Assembly (NCBI GenBank): GCA_016839765.1
Contig: JAEOTP010000007.1
Location: forward strand, 32,001 to 96,000
Length of the DNA: 64,000 nucleotides
DNA from: Promethearchaeota archaeon
GTDB taxonomy: Archaea > Asgardarchaeota > Lokiarchaeia > Sigyniarchaeales > SOKP01
Direction of reading: 5' to 3'
This document shows, piece after piece, positions 902-12,965 of the stretch. The position numbers and the translations under genes are program-made. Position 1 is the first letter of the stretch, and each line of letters opens with the position of its first letter. The notes under the pieces are model-generated. The model did not search any database, had not been told where the DNA came from, and worked only from the letters and a program-made list of their open reading frames with translations.

Positions 902-2182
902 ATGAGTAAATTCCATTCTGATATCTCAGGTTTTTATAAACTATCCTTAAGAGAACGGCAAAAAACTCTTTCTGAGCTTGTTAATCTTGATGATGAAGAG
1001 GTCAAATTACTTAAAAATTTTGGATATTTCAAAGAGACACAAATTGATACTTTAATTGAAAACGTTGTTGGATCTTATCAATTACCCATTGGGATTGCGT
1101 GTAATTTTAGAATTAATAACAAGGATTACTTGATTCCTATGGTAATAGAGGAACCTTCCGTTGTTGCAGCAGCTTCAAACGCAGCAAGAATTGCTCGAAA
1201 ACATGGAGGATTTTTTTCAGAAAAAGTAGATTCAATTATGATATCTCAAATCCAAATAACCAATCTTACTGATGTTGAACAAGCTAAAAAAATTTTGTTA
1301 GAGAATAAAAAGAATATATTGAAGATTGCTAATGACCAAGATCCAATCTTAGTAAAACTTGGTGGAGGAGCATATGATTTTGAACTCAGAGATATTTATA
1401 CAAGAAAAGGTGTTATGTTAATAATTCATTTATTAGTCAATGTTTTAGATGCTATGGGTGCTAATGTAGTCAATACTATGGCTGAGTCTGTTACGCCTTA
1501 TATCGAGGAGTTATGTGAGGGTAAAGTTAATCTACGAATCGTATCAAATTTAGCCATTCATAGACTGGCAAAATGTAAAGCTAAATTTGACAAAGTCTTA
1601 TTAGGTGGAGAAGAAGTTGTAAAAGGTATAGTTAATGCATATGAATTTGCCCTTGCTGATCCATATCGTGCCACAACTCATAATAAAGGAATAATGAATG
1701 GAATAACTGCTCTAACTTTAGCAACTGGGAATGATACACGAGCTATAGAATCTGGAGCTCATGCTTATGCTTCATTAAAAGGTAATTATTCTCCATTGAC
1801 TAATTTTGAAGTTGATGCAGAAGGAAATTTAATAGGTGAAATTAAGATTCCACTTGCTTTAGGAATTATTGGCGGGATGACAAAATTACATCCAATGGCG
1901 CGATTAAATCTAAAAATTCTAGGTGTAAAATCAGCTGCAGAGTTATCTCAAGTTGCAGCTGCAGTAGGACTAGCTCAAAACGTTGCAGCATTAAGAGCTT
2001 TAGCGGCTGAAGGTATTCAGAGAGGTCATATGGCACTTCATTCTCGTAATATTGCAAAATTAGCTGGAGTGCCTGAGAATCTTATTGATCAAGTAGCAAA
2101 AAAATTAGTTAAAGATAACAAAATTAGGATTGATTATGCTAAAGAAATATTACAAAAAATTATCGATAAGAAAAACCTTTAG
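902..2182 (+). CDS. mvaA: HMG-CoA reductase, class II (NAD-dependent type)
   Basis: IENVVG, EEPSVVAAAS, DAMGAN, THNKGIMNG, GNDTRA and GIQRGHMALH motifs. Confidence 0.93.
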   Translation: MSKFHSDISGFYKLSLRERQKTLSELVNLDDEEVKLLKNFGYFKETQIDTLIENVVGSYQLPIGIACNFRINNKDYLIPMVIEEPSVVAAASNAARIARKHGGFFSEKVDSIMISQIQITNLTDVEQAKKILLENKKNILKIANDQDPILVKLGGGAYDFELRDIYTRKGVMLIIHLLVNVLDAMGANVVNTMAESVTPYIEELCEGKVNLRIVSNLAIHRLAKCKAKFDKVLLGGEEVVKGIVNAYEFALADPYRATTHNKGIMNGITALTLATGNDTRAIESGAHAYASLKGNYSPLTNFEVDAEGNLIGEIKIPLALGIIGGMTKLHPMARLNLKILGVKSAAELSQVAAAVGLAQNVAALRALAAEGIQRGHMALHSRNIAKLAGVPENLIDQVAKKLVKDNKIRIDYAKEILQKIIDKKNL

Positions 2183-2263
2183 TTTTATAAAAAGTGGTTC
2201 ATAAACTTCTCTAGTTAAAACCTTTATTATTCGTAATACTATCATTATAAAAAATGATTTGAG

Positions 2264-3574
2264 TTGATAAATTTGGGATTTAGACAATATTTAAATAAAA
2301 TTGAAGAAAGCGGACTTCTTAAAAAAATAGATGTTGATGTTTCAAAGAAATTAGAGATTTCAGGTATTTTAAAAGAATTAGAGCCAACCCCCGTATTGTT
2401 TAATAATGTCAATGAATCTGAGTTCCGAGTAGTTGGCAATATGTTTTGTACTAAAAATGTAATTGCTTCATATTTCGGTGTGACTCCAGCAGATCTTATT
2501 CCTATGCTTTCTAAAGCGATTAAAGAAAGAAAAGAACCTGAGGTTATATCAAAGGCCCCCTGCCAAGAAGTAGTCGAATCAAATGTAGATTTAGATAAAG
2601 TTCCAATATTATTCCACTGTGAAAAGGATGGGGGGAATTATATAAGCTCAGCTGTAGTTGTCACTAAGGATCCTGATTATGGGCAAAATTTGGATTTTCA
2701 TAGAGCTATGCAGATTTCTAAAGAAAAATTTACGACTAGAATAGTAAAAGGACGTCACTTTTACAAATTTTTAGAAAAGAATGGTGAATTGGACGTAGCT
2801 TTTTGTATAGGGAATTCTCCAAATATTCTTATTGCTGGAGCTACTTCTGTTGATATTGGGGTAGATGAATTGACAATTGCTAATGCATTAGAACCAATTA
2901 AACTTGTTAAGGCAAATTCTGTTGATTTATTAATTCCTGCAGAAACTGAATTTGTTTTAGAGGGACGAGTATTTTCGGAAGAAAGATATGCTGAGGGACC
3001 TTTTGTTGATTTAACTGAAACATATGATGTAGTGAGAGATGAACCTGTTTTTGAAGTTAAGAAAATCACACATAGAAAAGATGCAATTTGGCAAGCATTA
3101 TTACCAGGTGCCCTAGAGCATAAGATTTTAATGGGAATGCCCCGTGAGCCAACCATTTTTAATAAAGTGAATGAATCAGGCGTAAAATGTCTAGATGTAA
3201 ACATTAATCCGGGAGGATGCTCATGGCTTCATGCCATTGTAAAAATTGACAAGTCTTCAGAAGAGGATGGTAAAAAAGCAATTTATGGCGCTTTTGCTGG
3301 TCATAGTAGCTGTAAACATGTCTTTGTTGTAGATAAAGATATTGATATCTATGACCCATTATCCGTGGAATGGGCAATGGCAACTCGTTTTCAAGGAGAT
3401 TTAAGAATGGTAATTAAAGATAAAGAACCGGGTAGTAGTTTAGATCCAAGTGCTGAACCAGGCACAAAAATGACTACGAAAATTGGCTTTGATTTCACAA
3501 AACCACTTGTTACTAAGGGTAAGAGTTTTGACTTAGCCAAATTTCCTAAAGTTGACATAGATAAATATCTTTAA
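2264..3574 (+). CDS. UbiD-family decarboxylase, probable anhydromevalonate phosphate decarboxylase
   Basis: EGPFVD, VVDKDIDIYD, WAMATRFQ and GSSLDPS UbiD motifs; sits between HMGR and the AcnX genes. Confidence 0.88.
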   Translation: MINLGFRQYLNKIEESGLLKKIDVDVSKKLEISGILKELEPTPVLFNNVNESEFRVVGNMFCTKNVIASYFGVTPADLIPMLSKAIKERKEPEVISKAPCQEVVESNVDLDKVPILFHCEKDGGNYISSAVVVTKDPDYGQNLDFHRAMQISKEKFTTRIVKGRHFYKFLEKNGELDVAFCIGNSPNILIAGATSVDIGVDELTIANALEPIKLVKANSVDLLIPAETEFVLEGRVFSEERYAEGPFVDLTETYDVVRDEPVFEVKKITHRKDAIWQALLPGALEHKILMGMPREPTIFNKVNESGVKCLDVNINPGGCSWLHAIVKIDKSSEEDGKKAIYGAFAGHSSCKHVFVVDKDIDIYDPLSVEWAMATRFQGDLRMVIKDKEPGSSLDPSAEPGTKMTTKIGFDFTKPLVTKGKSFDLAKFPKVDIDKYL

Positions 3575-3592
3575 TTTTTGGAGGTAATGAAA

Positions 3593-4786
3593 ATGAAATT
3601 AACTTCTGAAGATCAAGATATGTTGGATGGTAAATATGGAAAGGCCACCCAAAAATCAATGGAAATTTTAACCATACTTGGTGAAATATTTGAAGCTGAA
3701 GATATGATTGATGTGGTGGGTGTTCAGATCGCAGGTGTGTCCTATGACAATCTTGGAGAAGCAGGATTGGAATTCTTAAGCGAGATGGCAGAAGATGGAA
3801 AGGTTAGAGTCTTAACTACATTAAATCCAGCAGGAATGGATCGTGAAAATTGGCGAGCATTGGGTATTGATGAAGAATTTGCTAAGAATCAAAATCGCGC
3901 TCTCGATGCTTTTGCTAAAATGGGGATAATTACAACCTGTTCTTGTACGCCTTACTTAATTGGTAATACGCCTCATTATGGTCAGCATCTTGCATGGGCT
4001 GAAAGTAGCGCGGTATGTTATGCTAATTCCGTTATTGGTGCTCGAAGTAATCGTGAAGGCGGCCCAAGTGCTCTAGCATCAGCTTTGACCGGAATAACAC
4101 CTAGATATGGGTATCATTTGGATAAAAATCGTCAAGGGGAAGTTTTAATTAAAGTTAACGCTCCAGTTAAAGGAACCGATGAATTTGGAGTTTTAGGAAA
4201 AATAATAGGTGATAAATTAGTTAAATTAGGCAAAAAAATACCATACATAACAGGTATCCCTTCTGCTTCAATTGAAGAACTCAAGTCATTTTGTGCTTCC
4301 GTTGCTACTTATGGTGGAACTGCACTATTCCACATGGAAAGAATAACTCCCGAATTCGATACATACCCTAAACCAAGCGATATCGTTTTTGACATTAATC
4401 AAAGCGATCTAGATAAAGCACGTGCTGAGCTTATAGATGATCATCTTGAAATTGATTTTGTAAGTATTGGCTGTCCTCACGCTTCAATACATGAAATTGC
4501 CACAATTGCAAAATTGTTAAAGGGAAAGAAAGTAAAGAAAGAATTTTGGATAACTACTGCTCGTCCAACCAAGAGAATTGCAGATGAAGTTGGTTATTCT
4601 AAAATAATTGAAATGGCAGGAGCAAAATTTGCAGCAGATACTTGCTGTGTTGTAGCCCCAATTAAAGGACGTTTCAAGGGTATAATGGTTGACTCCGCTA
4701 AAGCATGTTATTATGGTCGTGCAAAGAATAAATTTAAAGTAAAAATAGGAAAAATTGAAGAATGTGTTGAGGAGGCTACAAAATGA
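3593..4786 (+). CDS. Aconitase X catalytic subunit (phosphomevalonate dehydratase, large subunit)
   Basis: TCSCTPY, AWAESSAV, NSVIGARSNREGG, IGCPHAS and DTCCVV motifs; ATG at 3593 lies 7 nt after GGAGGT. Confidence 0.9.
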   Translation: MKLTSEDQDMLDGKYGKATQKSMEILTILGEIFEAEDMIDVVGVQIAGVSYDNLGEAGLEFLSEMAEDGKVRVLTTLNPAGMDRENWRALGIDEEFAKNQNRALDAFAKMGIITTCSCTPYLIGNTPHYGQHLAWAESSAVCYANSVIGARSNREGGPSALASALTGITPRYGYHLDKNRQGEVLIKVNAPVKGTDEFGVLGKIIGDKLVKLGKKIPYITGIPSASIEELKSFCASVATYGGTALFHMERITPEFDTYPKPSDIVFDINQSDLDKARAELIDDHLEIDFVSIGCPHASIHEIATIAKLLKGKKVKKEFWITTARPTKRIADEVGYSKIIEMAGAKFAADTCCVVAPIKGRFKGIMVDSAKACYYGRAKNKFKVKIGKIEECVEEATK

Positions 4787-5175
4787 AGCTAAATGGAAGA
4801 AAAATATATAAGGGGAAAACTAAAGGAAAAACAATAGTCACCAAAGACGGAATTTCGTTTTATGGAGGCATAGATCCCGATACTGGAATAGTTGTGGAAG
4901 TTGGACATGAATTAGAAGGCCAATCTGTTTCTGGTAAAATATTAGTATTTCCAACTGGAAAAGGTTCTACTGTGGGGTCTTATACTATGTATCGAATGAA
5001 GAAGAATAATACAGCTCCTCTAGCTATAATTAACGAAAAGATCGATACGATCATTGCAGTGGGATGTATAATAAGCGAAATTCCATGCGTGGATATGATC
5101 GATATTAACTTAATAAAAAATGAACAGGAAGTTGTTGTCAATGGTTCTGAAGGAACTGTTGAAATTATAGATTAA
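4783..5175 (+). CDS. Aconitase X swivel subunit (phosphomevalonate dehydratase, small subunit; DUF126)
   Basis: ISFYGGIDPDTG and GKGSTVGS motifs; 4-nt overlap with the large subunit. Confidence 0.9.
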   Translation: MKLNGRKIYKGKTKGKTIVTKDGISFYGGIDPDTGIVVEVGHELEGQSVSGKILVFPTGKGSTVGSYTMYRMKKNNTAPLAIINEKIDTIIAVGCIISEIPCVDMIDINLIKNEQEVVVNGSEGTVEIID

Positions 5176-5254
5176 TTAAAAAAAAAAAAATTTATATTTT
5201 TTTATAATAATTATTCAAGATAAATAACCAAATTATGTAGAGAAGGTGAAATTT

Positions 5255-6221
5255 TTGGGAACTGGAAAAGGGTATGGAAAGACTATTCTTTTTGGCGAAT
5301 TTTTCCTCCCAATTCGGGAATAAACGCTAACATTTTGTAGTTTATGGTCTTCCAGCAATCGCATCCGCTATCGGTTCTAAGACAATCGCTACTGTTAAAG
5401 CAGTCAATGGCGAAGGATGGACAGTAGATGACCAACGAATAGCAACACCAGGTTATAAGGATAAAAAATTTAAAGAGGCCCAACAAGCTATTATTAACGT
5501 TATTAAATACTTAAATATTGATATTATTAATAATAAACTTGAGATTACTTTTACAGGAGATTTAGTAGCAGCAAGTGGAGTGGGAGCTTCTGCAGCTCAA
5601 TGTACTTCTCTTGCTCGTGCACTCAGTGAGGAATTTAATCTTAATTTAGATGATGAAAAAATAAATGAAGCTGCTTATTCAGGTGAAATGGCATACCATG
5701 GAACTCCATCTGGCATCGATAATACCGCATCCACATATGGAGGATTAATTTGGTTTGTGAAAAGTTTAAGTGGAGGAAAAAACACCATTGATCGTCTCAA
5801 ATCTGCCGAAAAAATGCATTTAATTATAGCAAATACGGGCATAACTGCTTCTACTGCTGAGGTTGTTGCAGATGTTCGTAAATTGAGAGAAGAGAATCCA
5901 GAAAAGTTTAATAAAATATTCAATAAATATGAAAAAATCGCAAAAAATGCAAAAAATGCATTAATTAAAGGCGATAGGGATTCTGTTGGAAAATTAATGA
6001 ATCAAAATCATAAATTATTACAATTAATATCAGTTTCATCTGAGATTAATGACAAAATTGTCGATATTGCCTTAAATAATGGAGCAATAGGAGCAAAAAT
6101 GACTGGGACTGGTCGAGGGGGATTAGTAATAGCTTTAACCTTAGATGAAAATAATCAAAAAAGTGTTTCTGCTACTATCGAGAAGGAGGGTTTTTCAACA
6201 TGGAAAACAACTATTGGTTAA
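5255..6221 (+). CDS. mvk: Mevalonate kinase, split gene: join(5255..5299,5331..6221), 311 aa after removing a 31-nt insert
   Basis: TTG follows AGGTGA. Exon 1 reads MGTGKGYGKTILFGE and exon 2 reads HFVVYGLPAIASAIG...SGVGASAA...HGTPSGID...GAKMTGTGRGG (GHMP motifs). The ORF track shows only the part from 5580. Confidence 0.9.
5300..5330 (+). other. Candidate bulge-helix-bulge (archaeal-type) mRNA intron, 31 nt
   Basis: Central helix GGCG(5294-97)/CGCU(5325-28), 3-nt bulges AA|U (5298-5300) and AA|C (5329-31), inner UUU/AAA and a UCCC-AAUUC-GGGA hairpin. Cutting after bulge nt 2 rejoins GAA-CAU (Glu-His) in frame. Confidence 0.8.
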
Positions 6222-6290: not shown

Positions 6291-8183
6291 GTGAAGAGAG
6301 ACAATACAATATACTTATTAAAATTAGGCGGTAGTTTACTAACTGATAAAAACGAACCTTCTTCATTAAGGGAAGATGTTATAAACAGAGCTATTGAACA
6401 GATTATAGAAAGTAATAAAAGAGTTGTTTTGATTCATGGCGGAGGTTCATTTGGTCACCCTATTGCAAAAAAATATCAATTATTTAAAGGATTAAACACA
6501 TCTATTAAAAATCAAGTATTAGGGCTTTCTAAAACTCATGAAATGATGAATCAACTTAATACAATAATAATAAACAAATTTTTAAAGAAGAATTACCCAG
6601 TTTTATCTATTTCACCTTCAGCAATATTTATTAAAAGATCTCAACAGTTTATACTTAATTCCATTGATCCAATTGAAATTTCATTGAAATTAGGGGTTTT
6701 ACCAATCCTCTATGGAGATATCATCCTAGAAAAAGATGGTTCCTTCTCAATAATATCTGGAGATGACATAATTTTAGAATTATGTAAGACCTTGAAGAAT
6801 TTTGAAATTGTTAAGGTTATTTTTGCTATTGAGAAAGACGGGATTTATGTAAAAGACGGAGATAGTATTGAATTTGCTTCACAAATTAATTTTGATGAAT
6901 TAAAAAGTGTAGAATTAGCTGATTTAGAGCATAAAATAGATGTGACCGGAGGAATTGGAAGAAAATTTGAAATTATAAAACAAATTGCTGAATTAAATAT
7001 TCCTGTTCAAGTTATTAATGGCTTAAAAAAAAATTATATCTTAAAATCTTTAAAAAACCAAAAGCTAGATTGCACAAATATTAGCTTATCTAAGGAAAAA
7101 GATGATATTCAAGCAATTCATACCAGAAAATTAGAACATTTAACAATCCCATTAGATTATAATGTACAATCCACTAAAAATTATTTTGACGAAATTATAT
7201 TAATACATCATCCATTACCTGAAATAGAATTACATGATGTTGAATTAGGAACCCAATTTTTCAATAAAAGTGTTTCCGCTCCTATTTGTATTGCAGCTAT
7301 AACTGGTGGCCATCCAATATCTAAAAAAATTAATAAAATATTAGCAGAAGCTGCTGAATCAGAAAATATAATAATGAGTGTTGGAAGTCAACGTATAGCA
7401 TTAGAGGATCAAACCGCTGTTGAATCCTTTCAAATCGTTCGAGAATGCGCTCCAAATATTCCTATTATTGGAAATCTTGGAATAGGACAAATAAGTTCTA
7501 ATGATTTTCAATTAGAAGAATTTCAAAAATGCATTGAAATGATAAATGCTGATATTATGGCAATTCATTTCAATGCTCTCCATGAATTAGTACAAAAAGA
7601 TGGTAATATTTATTATACAGCTTTTTCTGATAACTTTAAAACAGTAAGGGAAAGGTTTAAGATTCCCATAATTGCTAAAGAAGTTGGAACAGGCTTTAAC
7701 CGTGATCTAGCCTTACAGCTTGACCTTTTGGGTTTTGATGGATTTGACGTAGGAGGAATGGGAGGCACAAATTTTACTAGTATAGAATCAATTAGAGATA
7801 ATGATAATAATGAAAATTATACAAGAAAACTTGCTGATACACTAAAAAATTGGGGGATACCAACTCCAATTAGTATTTTAAATGTCAGAAGTACATCAAA
7901 AAAGCCTATCATTGCAACGGGAGGGTTAAGGACGGGACTTGATATTGCAAAAAGTATAGTTTTAGGAGCGGATATAGGAGGTTTTGCCTACAAATTCCTT
8001 AAATCTGCTTGGAAAGATTATAAACAAGAAACAATAACCAATACAATAAATGAAATTCGAACATTAAAACACGAATTACTGTCAGTAATGTGGTTATTAA
8101 ATATAGATAAAATTGAAAATCTTAAAAGTAAAAGAGAAAAAAGTATCCTCTTAGGAGATATGTATAAATGGGCTAACCAATAA
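6291..8183 (+). CDS. Isopentenyl phosphate kinase fused to type 2 isopentenyl-diphosphate isomerase
   Basis: N-half: KLGGSLLTDK, HGGGSFGH, ISGDD, DVTGG (IPK). C-half: RKLEH, ITGG, VGSQR, KEVGTG, GGTNF, WGIPT, TGGLRTG (IDI-2/Fni). Confidence 0.9.
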   Translation: MKRDNTIYLLKLGGSLLTDKNEPSSLREDVINRAIEQIIESNKRVVLIHGGGSFGHPIAKKYQLFKGLNTSIKNQVLGLSKTHEMMNQLNTIIINKFLKKNYPVLSISPSAIFIKRSQQFILNSIDPIEISLKLGVLPILYGDIILEKDGSFSIISGDDIILELCKTLKNFEIVKVIFAIEKDGIYVKDGDSIEFASQINFDELKSVELADLEHKIDVTGGIGRKFEIIKQIAELNIPVQVINGLKKNYILKSLKNQKLDCTNISLSKEKDDIQAIHTRKLEHLTIPLDYNVQSTKNYFDEIILIHHPLPEIELHDVELGTQFFNKSVSAPICIAAITGGHPISKKINKILAEAAESENIIMSVGSQRIALEDQTAVESFQIVRECAPNIPIIGNLGIGQISSNDFQLEEFQKCIEMINADIMAIHFNALHELVQKDGNIYYTAFSDNFKTVRERFKIPIIAKEVGTGFNRDLALQLDLLGFDGFDVGGMGGTNFTSIESIRDNDNNENYTRKLADTLKNWGIPTPISILNVRSTSKKPIIATGGLRTGLDIAKSIVLGADIGGFAYKFLKSAWKDYKQETITNTINEIRTLKHELLSVMWLLNIDKIENLKSKREKSILLGDMYKWANQ

Positions 8184-10319: not shown

Positions 10320-11387
10320 CTAATAATTCCTATTCATCACAAATTTTAAGAGACTTTCAAAAAATTCTGTTTCTGACGGATCTATTACTTTCTTTAGACC
10401 ATCTAGAGCATTTTTTGCTTTATCAAAATAATTTCTTGATAATTCCTTGCACGAATCAACTACTTCAGCTTCTAAAAACAAATCCTTGACTTTTTGAACA
10501 TCATTTTTTGCCATGTTTTGATTATGTATCAAATCATTAAGATGCTTTTTCTTACTATCATCCAATTTCTCATAAGCTTCTATTAATAAACAAGTCTTTT
10601 TACCTTCTCTTATATCTCCATCAGTTGGTTTTCCTGTTACTTTTTCATCCCCAAAAGTACCTAGGATGTCATCTATAATTTGAAAAACTATACCTAAATT
10701 AATGCCATAACTAGATAAGAGTTTAACGTTAGCTTTATTTACATTGGCATAATTTGCACCAATTAATAATGATTTTTCGATTAATGCGCCCGTTTTTAAG
10801 GAAATCATGTTAATATAGTCATTAATTGTTAATTCTTCCTTATTTACCATATCCATTTCAATTAAAACACCATTCGCAATTTCAATAAAAGCTTGCTCAT
10901 ACAAGGAAACCGCTTTTAAATTTAAATCTGTAGCAAAATCATTATAAAAATACGCTTCTAAACCTAAGAAAAACGCTGTATCACCACCTATTATTCCTAT
11001 GGAATTACCAAAATCTAACGCATCCATCTTTTGTAGACTGTACTTCTTGTGATAATTCTGAAATCTATAATGAAAAGCAGGATTTCCTCTTCTAAAATTA
11101 TCTTTATCTATAATATCGTCGTGTACTAATGAGGCATTGTGAAGAAATTCGATTCCAACACTTGGAATTAAAATTCTTTCATCTTTTTCTTTCTTAAATG
11201 CGTTATAGGCAGCTATAGTGAGGATTGGGCGAATCCTTTTACCCCCACTGAGAAAATAATCTTGAAGTTCTGAATAATAACTAATTAAAAAATCATCTTT
11301 TATATTTTTTAACTTTCTTTCAAAAAGATTATTAATTTCTTCGTTAATCTTTGGTCTATAAAGCCCTAAATAATTTAAAAATTTAAT
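10320..11387 (-). CDS. Geranylgeranyl diphosphate / polyprenyl synthase (probable ATT start)
   Basis: Frame is open from 11387 with GGKRIRP, FARM LVHDDIID and RRG upstream of the ORF-track start; KTGAL and FQIIDDILG downstream. An in-frame TGA lies just upstream (TGA TTT TCT ATT). Confidence 0.9.
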   Translation of the reverse strand: MKFLNYLGLYRPKINEEINNLFERKLKNIKDDFLISYYSELQDYFLSGGKRIRPILTIAAYNAFKKEKDERILIPSVGIEFLHNASLVHDDIIDKDNFRRGNPAFHYRFQNYHKKYSLQKMDALDFGNSIGIIGGDTAFFLGLEAYFYNDFATDLNLKAVSLYEQAFIEIANGVLIEMDMVNKEELTINDYINMISLKTGALIEKSLLIGANYANVNKANVKLLSSYGINLGIVFQIIDDILGTFGDEKVTGKPTDGDIREGKKTCLLIEAYEKLDDSKKKHLNDLIHNQNMAKNDVQKVKDLFLEAEVVDSCKELSRNYFDKAKNALDGLKKVIDPSETEFFESLLKFVMNRNY

Positions 11388-11738
11388 AGAAAATCACTAA
11401 AATTTATTGTGTTATTTCTTAATTTAAATTGATTTTAAATAAAAGTGCTATCAAATTTAGAATAATATGAAAGGTTTGATAGATGTGATAAATTAATAAT
11501 TTAATAAAAAATATTGTTCTCTGATATGATAAAAAAGAATCGATACAGATTTTCTTATTAATTCTTTATTAAATTACTAAATTCACTTAGTATAATTATT
11601 ATAAAAAACACATTCTTTTGATGATACTATAAAGACAAACAAGTATTTCGCTTACTAAGAATCTTAATACCAACATTATGGAGATATAAAAATCAAGGTG
11701 TTTTAAAAACCAAATTATCGAAAAATTAATAGAAAAAA

Positions 11739-12965
11739 ATGAGATTAACTGAGGTTATCCATGTAAAGCATTCATTAGAATTATCAAAAGTATGTCATTT
11801 AGCTAAGAACCTTTATAATTTAGCTAATTGGTATATAAGACAGGATTTCTTTAATCTTAATAATGTTTTAACCTATTATGATTTAGACTTTATTTTGAAA
11901 CATACACAAGCTTATCAGAATCTTCCCTCTCAAACTTCACAGCAAATTCTCAAATATGTGAATAGAAACTGGAAATCTTATTTTAGAGCGATAAAAGAAT
12001 ATAACCGAGATAACAAGAAGTTTAAGCAAAAACCCAGAATCCCCAGTTACAAAAAGAAAAGTGGAGAATCTATTGTAGTTTTTACCAATCAACAATGCCG
12101 GATAAAAAAAGGATATTTACATTTTCCAAAAAGGGTTAATCTTGAATCAATTAAAATTAGAATTAAAAATAAATTAAAGGAAGTAAGGATAATCCCTTTA
12201 GGAGTAAAATATAAAATTGAAACGATATATGAAAAAGAAGAGAAGGAGTTAGGATTAGATAAAGAGTATATTTTAAGCATTGATTTAGGGTTGAATAATC
12301 TCATAACTGCAGAAAATAATAGGTGTACCCCATTTATTATAAAAGGTGGGATGATAAAATCTATAAATCAATATTATAACAAACAATTGGCATATTTTAG
12401 AAGTATTGAAAATAAGAAGGGAAATTTTAGTGATACAAAAAGAATTCAAAAACTGCATTTAACTCGAAACAATAAACTTACTACATTGTTTCATCGAATT
12501 TCCAAAAATGTAATTAAGTATTGTATTCAAAATAACATTGGAACAATTTTAATAGGATACAATAACGGATGGAAGCAGAACATTAGTTTTGGAAAAAAAA
12601 AAAATCAGAAATTTATTCAAATTCCTTTCTTGAAATTAGTAAAACAAATTGAATATAAAAGTAAATTGAAAGGGATTCAAGTTAAGCGAGTTGAAGAATC
12701 TTACACTTCCAAATGCTCTTTCTTAGACAAAGAATCTATTGAAAAACATGAAAAGTATGGAGGAAAAAGAATTTCCAGAGGCTTGTTTAAAACTTCTAAA
12801 GGTATTCTAATCAATGCCGATGTGAATGGGGCATATAATATCATGAAAAAAGCATTCCCAAATGCCGTTTCGGTGGATGGGATAGAGGCATTCGGACTAA
12901 TGCCACAAATAATTCAACAACACATCGCTGATAAGATTATTTGCAATAAAATGGGTATAGTATAA
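11739..12965 (+). CDS. tnpB: IS200/IS605-family TnpB RNA-guided endonuclease
   Basis: KNLYN, SIDLGLNN, EESYTSKCS and NADVNGAYNI motifs. Confidence 0.92.
   Translation: MRLTEVIHVKHSLELSKVCHLAKNLYNLANWYIRQDFFNLNNVLTYYDLDFILKHTQAYQNLPSQTSQQILKYVNRNWKSYFRAIKEYNRDNKKFKQKPRIPSYKKKSGESIVVFTNQQCRIKKGYLHFPKRVNLESIKIRIKNKLKEVRIIPLGVKYKIETIYEKEEKELGLDKEYILSIDLGLNNLITAENNRCTPFIIKGGMIKSINQYYNKQLAYFRSIENKKGNFSDTKRIQKLHLTRNNKLTTLFHRISKNVIKYCIQNNIGTILIGYNNGWKQNISFGKKKNQKFIQIPFLKLVKQIEYKSKLKGIQVKRVEESYTSKCSFLDKESIEKHEKYGGKRISRGLFKTSKGILINADVNGAYNIMKKAFPNAVSVDGIEAFGLMPQIIQQHIADKIICNKMGIV

Follow-up and report, generated by a model that had tools for sequence, protein, structure and literature searches.

How is a full-length mevalonate kinase made from a gene (mvk) whose conserved GKxILFGEH motif is split, exactly between its Glu and His codons, by 31 nt containing stop codons? 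The gene lies in the window, i.e. the whole stretch of 64,000 nucleotides of Promethearchaeota archaeon DNA that was analysed, and is laid out as follows:

5243 to 5249, forward strand: Shine-Dalgarno-like AAGGTGA, 5 nt upstream of the TTG start, read from the sequence
5255 to 5299, forward strand: mvk exon 1, 15 codons with a TTG start, ending in GKTILFGE
5300 to 5330, forward strand: candidate intron of the bulge-helix-bulge (BHB) type, 31 nt, splitting the Glu and His codons of GKxILFGEH
5331 to 6221, forward strand: mvk exon 2, 296 codons and a stop, first residue His

The initial annotation of this DNA had described the insert, the two stop codons in it and the products with and without it, and all of these were recovered when the coordinates were read again. 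TAA at 5321-23 stops the exon-1 frame, the unspliced product being 22 aa long with its stop at codon 23, and TAA at 5328-30 closes the exon-2 frame in the window allele. Exact removal of 5300-5330 joins Glu to His, restores GKxILFGEH and gives a product of 311 aa.

The mvk gene is part of a mevalonate cluster, which also contains UbiX and the following genes on either side of mvk:

902 to 5175, forward strand: HMG-CoA reductase, UbiD-family decarboxylase, and the large and small subunits of an aconitase X-like enzyme
6291 to 8183, forward strand: isopentenyl phosphate kinase fused to type 2 IPP isomerase, matching NF040647 and TIGR02151, both above the cut-off

The downstream fusion is a single frame of 630 aa, and the genes at 902 to 5175 are presumably those of the archaeal modified mevalonate pathway. 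Between the upstream gene and mvk there are about 90 AT-rich bases (5163-5255); in most relatives the start codon adjoins the stop codon directly. A promoter scan, being of a bacterial type, gave no information. Further along the window, sequence reading gave a prenyltransferase-like frame at 10320-11393 on the reverse strand, the upstream third of which has no ATG, and a TnpB-like frame at 11739-12965 on the forward strand. The closest named relatives have 93-94 % identity and are mostly labelled Promethearchaeota or Promethearchaeia, which makes the host a Loki-type Asgard archaeon.

Exon 2 alone is recognised as mevalonate kinase by TIGR00549 (218.8 bits, cut-off 163.05). The profile is matched from position 11, and thus exon 1 supplies the missing start. 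Gene calling cuts the window mvk to 213 aa, beginning at an internal GTG. An intact mvk elsewhere in the genome, which would have spoken for decay of this copy, was not found: the genome is 96 % complete and no second mvk was detected in it. The mvk orthologs share the position of the start codon, which is ATG, GTG, TTG or ACG. One clade (L007, L008, L010, L011 and L013) has ACG at this position with the same Shine-Dalgarno motif upstream, and this ACG is probably a non-AUG start. For the mvk type as such (L009:1456-2388; L113, L121, L124, L130, L138), the best solved relative is kinase 2HFS, which we take to be the Leishmania kinase, with an E value of 1e-73 compared to 1e-31 for other solved kinases. 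Records labelled Bathyarchaeota hold intron-less copies of this mvk type that are 68-69 % identical, and it is possible, judging from this similarity, that gene transfer of the mvk type has involved the organisms behind these records.

The insert is not an assembly error. A contig of depth 40 from the probable source run covers the region without a difference, insert included, and contigs from three further studies cross it, so that the insert, whose presence in the DNA the initial annotation had wished to see confirmed, is found in contigs of four studies. A survey of 135 genomes of one Promethearchaeia family located it at the exact Glu/His boundary in 56 genomes from five genera, which bears out the expectation of a same-position insert in related mvk genes. 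Glu and His are joined directly, with clean absence of the insert, in 35 genomes of the family, and no genome in the survey has both an intron-bearing and an intron-less mvk. The 56 alleles carry inserts of 31 nt (51 alleles), 30 nt (four) or 28 nt (one). Matches of the search pattern in G014, G079, G102 and G118 were not mvk and were set aside. The pattern was absent from the 19 genomes searched in other families of the order, and the Thor-, Bathy- and other distant mvk orthologs examined are all without the intron. Metagenome contigs added 58 intron-bearing records, from which 44 alleles, 29 of them new, were analysed; the viral contigs searched gave no match. The metagenome contigs gave no example of the two exons joined with carrier-type codons, a result that is uninformative on splicing as the collection is not known to include RNA assemblies. 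Within the genome the mvk insert is unique, and no other place, tRNA introns included, matches it significantly. By eye it resembles a tRNA-Pro intron, but a profile search did not bear this out (best other match E 0.37), and Rfam gave only chance matches for the insert.

The sequence as written is a broken frame, and a second break occurs after about 135-175 residues of exon 2 in two of 55 carriers, L030 (G007) and L062 (G130), through either assembly error or real loss. Both observations could be taken as signs of a dead gene or an artefact, whether a pseudogene, an assembly error or the decayed footprint of a mobile element. However, the insert recurs in contigs of four studies, in 56 genomes and in 58 metagenome records, the search for another mvk and for a genome with both forms was negative, and a mobile footprint would have to be reconciled with the lack of a second copy. 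Both exons are also conserved. The last eight residues of exon 1 are identical in 55 of the 56 carriers, and among carriers the end of exon 1 shows 135 synonymous and 9 non-synonymous codon differences; exon 1 thus appears firmly to be under purifying selection. Decay of exon 2, which had been named as a possible objection, applies to the two carriers with the downstream break, whereas in the window exon 2 is intact and conserved. We give a dead gene or an artefact next to no credence.

The junctions of the insert are placed in a BHB fold made up of these elements:

5294 to 5297, forward strand: 5' strand of the central helix, GGCG, in exon 1, pairing with 5325-5328
5325 to 5328, forward strand: 3' strand of the central helix, CGCU, in the intron, pairing with 5294-5297
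5298 to 5300, forward strand: 5' bulge AA/U, predicted cut between 5299 and 5300
5329 to 5331, forward strand: 3' bulge AA/C, predicted cut between 5330 and 5331, closed by the pair U5293-A5332
5301 to 5324, forward strand: intron hairpin, 5301-03 pairing with 5322-24 and 5307-10 with 5316-19

This geometry, as drawn in the initial annotation, was confirmed in the window allele. According to the rule that EndA cuts after the second base of a bulge (PMC2738675), cuts in both bulges remove exactly 5300-5330. All 56 alleles have two 3-nt bulges on opposite strands with the junctions after the second base, and in each of them the 5' bulge reads A-purine-N and the 3' bulge A-N-C.

The central helix of the window genome consists of a G-U and three G-C type pairs, and across the family three of the four pairs are kept with compensation: pairs 2-4 are present in all 56 genome alleles and in all 44 metagenome alleles, C-G to U-A swaps among them. 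Pair 3 joins the wobble base of a Gly codon (GGC or GGT) to a G or A of the intron, as C-G in 51 alleles, U-A in four and U-G in one, with no mismatches. Its partner base changes four times on the tree, and intron-less alleles use all four Gly codons. Pair 1 (5294:5328) is G-U in the window allele and G.A in 34 of the 56 alleles, and G-C is also seen. The pair U5293-A5332 is invariant (56 of 56), with the Phe codon TTT in every carrier compared to 10 of 33 intron-less alleles, which indicates that the U-A pair closing the 3' bulge is kept. On the intron side, the first two pairs of the hairpin are retained in 54 of 56 alleles with the variants U-A, U-G and C-G. The flanking helix on the exon side is relaxed, consisting of one U-A pair, an internal loop and a helix of 8 bp. 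The motif thus appears to be a relaxed BHB across the family and not a canonical one, and the pattern of kept and compensated pairs argues strongly that the structure is under selection.

Folding calculations did not single out the motif. The folding energy of the region was no better than that of shuffled sequences (z = -1.06), the BHB fold in its exact form is 5.5 kcal/mol less stable than the minimum-energy fold, single-sequence folding and RNAalifold missed the BHB and recovered the exon-exon helix alone, and a covariation score on the first 17 alleles was not above column shuffles (44/500). As folding is uninformative here, the case stands on the comparison with relatives.

That comparison extends to the helix of 8 bp between the exons:

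5279 to 5286, forward strand: 5' arm of the exon-exon helix, in Lys-Thr-Ile codons
5344 to 5351, forward strand: 3' arm of the exon-exon helix, in Tyr-Gly-Leu codons

The outer helix originally proposed, 5280-86 with 5337-43, has a pair probability of 0.05 and is replaced by this one, for which the probability was 0.84-0.95 at the two inner pairs tested and 0.31 at the end pair. The energy of the exon-exon duplex is about -7 to -17 kcal/mol in carriers, compared to mostly -1 to -9 in non-carriers; the mean difference between the two groups is -9.3 kcal/mol, and at 240 other places in the gene it is 0.25 +/- 0.56. Close to the junction, carriers show less variation at fourfold sites than non-carriers, whereas in the remainder of the gene the two groups are equal (entropy 1.51 vs 1.50). 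When independent pairs were drawn from well-supported branches, the helix tracked the intron in about seven of seven of them (median p 0.016 in a sign test, with a threshold picked after the data were seen). The synonymous sites of the exons thus appear, with good support, to be constrained almost only in intron carriers, in a way that keeps the two junctions together. Synonymous constraint of this kind is what would be expected of an RNA that is cut and joined.

The initial annotation had suggested that broken genes of the genome be scanned for further BHB motifs. This yielded candidates: the top-ranked matches of a motif scan were purA, mvk, EF-1alpha and dnaG.

G000:C6:33814-33843, forward strand: purA insert, 30 nt, BHB-shaped, inside the Asp codon of the P-loop
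G000:C57:103567-103599, forward strand, and L034:1068-1100: EF-1alpha insert, 33 nt, BHB-shaped, with a stop, in the P-loop Lys codon of a single gene
G000:C17 from 32113, reverse strand: dnaG insert, 37 nt, BHB-shaped, between Gln and Thr

Each of the four genes is single-copy and has a conserved motif disrupted by its insert, and the unspliced products are 17-40 residues long. This brings the genome to four or more such inserts; the evidence for those in purA, EF-1alpha and dnaG is the disrupted protein motif and, for purA alone, also the comparison with relatives: the purA insert is present at the same site in 30 genomes, with lengths of 30, 31 and 32 nt, i.e. in all three frames. Raw counts did not add to this. 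A reference-free, genome-wide census of BHB motifs with loose filters gave hundreds of matches, in numbers equal to those of shifted controls, which were themselves poorly designed in that they kept the frame or found the same gene pairs again.

Could the ribosome cope with the insert without its removal? Translational recoding would mean a frameshift, readthrough or hop across the insert, with the hairpin as the recoding signal. It had been argued that TAA 5328 bars a simple frameshift, which holds for 24 of the 56 alleles, the window genome among them; the other 32 have no stop in the exon-2 frame across the insert, and this favours recoding, as do the XXXYYYZ-like runs in 37 alleles and the fact that 52 of the 56 inserts need the same +1 shift. 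However, every allele meets a stop within seven codons, the four 30-nt alleles included although they are in frame, and with lengths of 28, 30 and 31 nt no single shift rescues all alleles. A frameshift would moreover place about ten variable residues in a motif that runs uninterrupted in the solved kinases. For a bypass of the T4 gene 60 type, take-off and landing codons should match, but none of the 56 alleles has a landing codon to match Glu, and the occurrence of the purA insert in every frame also speaks against recoding. Stronger arguments against a frameshift than TAA 5328 are that the insert varies in length and that it interrupts an invariant motif. We regard recoding as most improbable.

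Removal from the RNA is the reading that we prefer, and the genome encodes suitable enzymes: two EndA paralogs (alpha and beta-type) and RtcB (match E 1e-170). The best solved relative of the alpha subunit is that of Aeropyrum pernix (3P1Z, E 3e-37), with which the loop lysine (K44 in A. pernix) and the catalytic Tyr-His-Lys triad are aligned. This loop has been linked to the cleavage of relaxed motifs and has been reported for Asgard enzymes (PMC5829648). The EndA of this genome can with confidence be assigned, by alignment, to the Aeropyrum-type alpha/beta enzymes with a broad-specificity loop. Many tRNA genes of the genome have introns in the D-arm or multiple introns and are misread by ARAGORN, resulting in false Pyl, SeC and Stop calls.

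The insert could also be removed at the same points by an enzyme or mechanism other than EndA and RtcB. The motif is relaxed, with its G.A pair and an outer helix of one pair, and EndA cleavage is at this locus a prediction. Against this, both junctions are exactly at the positions given by the EndA rule, the genome's EndA has the broad-specificity loop, and Rfam has no relevant match for the insert. A length of 28-31 nt is far below the size of a self-splicing intron. Another enzyme seems very unlikely.

Very probably, then, the mvk insert is a relaxed BHB intron in a pre-mRNA, of the kind known from cbf5, with removal by EndA and joining of the exons by RtcB. The splicing core of the initial annotation has strong support from the relatives and from the enzymes encoded. 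In the proposed mechanism the exon-exon helix would draw the two junctions together, and the central helix of 3-4 bp with its two A-led 3-nt bulges would be recognised by a heteromeric (alpha-beta)2 EndA. Cuts would be made in the mvk pre-mRNA after 5299 and 5330, and ligation of the exons by RtcB would restore Glu-His and the 311-aa kinase, whereas an unspliced message would yield the 22-aa peptide.

On the mvk gene tree the intron state changes a minimum of 7 and a maximum of 16 times, counts that carry no direction of change, and the junctions are always clean. All mvk inserts can be aligned with one another, and the simplest history is therefore one gain followed by repeated loss or replacement: the intron was probably gained once, in one Promethearchaeia family, and then lost cleanly many times or replaced by intron-less alleles. 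With a probable single origin and many clean losses, the intron is most likely a tolerated passenger that has to be removed and not a dedicated switch.

The initial annotation went further and saw in the splicing a possible control point of lipid synthesis, a part of its proposal for which we found no support. Such control would be an addition to splicing and not an alternative to it: the intron would be spliced, and its splicing regulated to control the synthesis of isoprenoid lipids. The intron is close to the 5' end, so that the unspliced message ends at codon 23, it is retained across the family, and a regulatory role has been proposed for the cbf5 intron. On the other hand, the family shows between 7 and 16 switches of presence and absence, similar inserts occur in unrelated genes of purine synthesis, translation and priming, and no conserved element was seen beyond the splice structure. 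We consider lipid control unlikely. A wider form, in which condition-dependent splicing by EndA and RtcB would jointly gate lipid, purine, translation and priming genes in this Asgard family, seems quite unlikely; if true, regulated splicing of mRNA without a spliceosome would have a forerunner in archaea. That several essential mRNAs are spliced routinely in this family, without regulation, we hold to be likely with good confidence.

If splicing takes place, the mvk, purA, EF-1alpha and dnaG cases show that close prokaryotic relatives of eukaryotes have to process essential mRNAs before translation, without a spliceosome and long after they split from the cbf5 lineage. Gene callers truncate genes split in this way, and annotation errors in Asgard pathways and marker genes are the consequence. 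As some sister species have the intron and others lack it, its gain, loss and cost are accessible to direct testing.

HAC1/XBP1 splicing, carried out by IRE1 and a tRNA ligase, is likewise a protein-only cutting and joining of mRNA with a tRNA-type ligase. It differs in its nuclease and RNA signal and is regulated by stress. Among archaea, the intron in the 5' UTR of HVO_1309 of Haloferax volcanii is cut from the mRNA by EndA at a BHB, and the spliced form is reported to be the main product (PMC7714728; PMC10485636). Unlike the mvk intron, it lies in an untranslated region, is processed by a homodimeric EndA and breaks no reading frame. A 2023 review lists cbf5 and HVO_1309 as the two archaeal mRNAs spliced by EndA and expects more (PMC10485636). 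In the literature searched, EndA-spliced archaeal mRNAs are thus known from two genes, only one of which has the intron within the coding sequence; no report of Asgard mRNA introns was found in this search, subscription journals being mostly outside its reach. A preprint on non-canonical tRNA introns in Asgard archaea deals with tRNA genes only, and by its own account none of the newly found introns has yet been seen to be spliced in a cell (bioRxiv 10.64898/2026.10.13.758758). These resemble the mvk intron in motif and enzyme and in the repeated change of state on the tree, but none of the tRNA introns of the genome matches the mvk intron significantly.

The cbf5 pre-mRNA intron of Desulfurococcales and Sulfolobales (Watanabe 2002; Yoshinari 2006; Yokobori 2009, PMC2738675), for which relaxed BHB motifs have been reported (PMC2738675), is a short intron in a conserved coding motif, 16-44 nt compared to 28-31 nt in mvk. 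Both have a relaxed BHB with cuts, in mvk predicted, after the second bulge base, a heteromeric EndA and clean loss in particular lineages. They differ in gene and phylum, the mvk intron being in the mevalonate kinase of Promethearchaeia, and in that the genome has at least three more such inserts besides the mvk intron; for cbf5, splicing has been demonstrated with cDNA, whereas for mvk we infer it. At the level of the family the 4-bp central helix is borne out in three of its four pairs; on the features testable here, comparison places the mvk intron with the cbf5 pre-mRNA intron.
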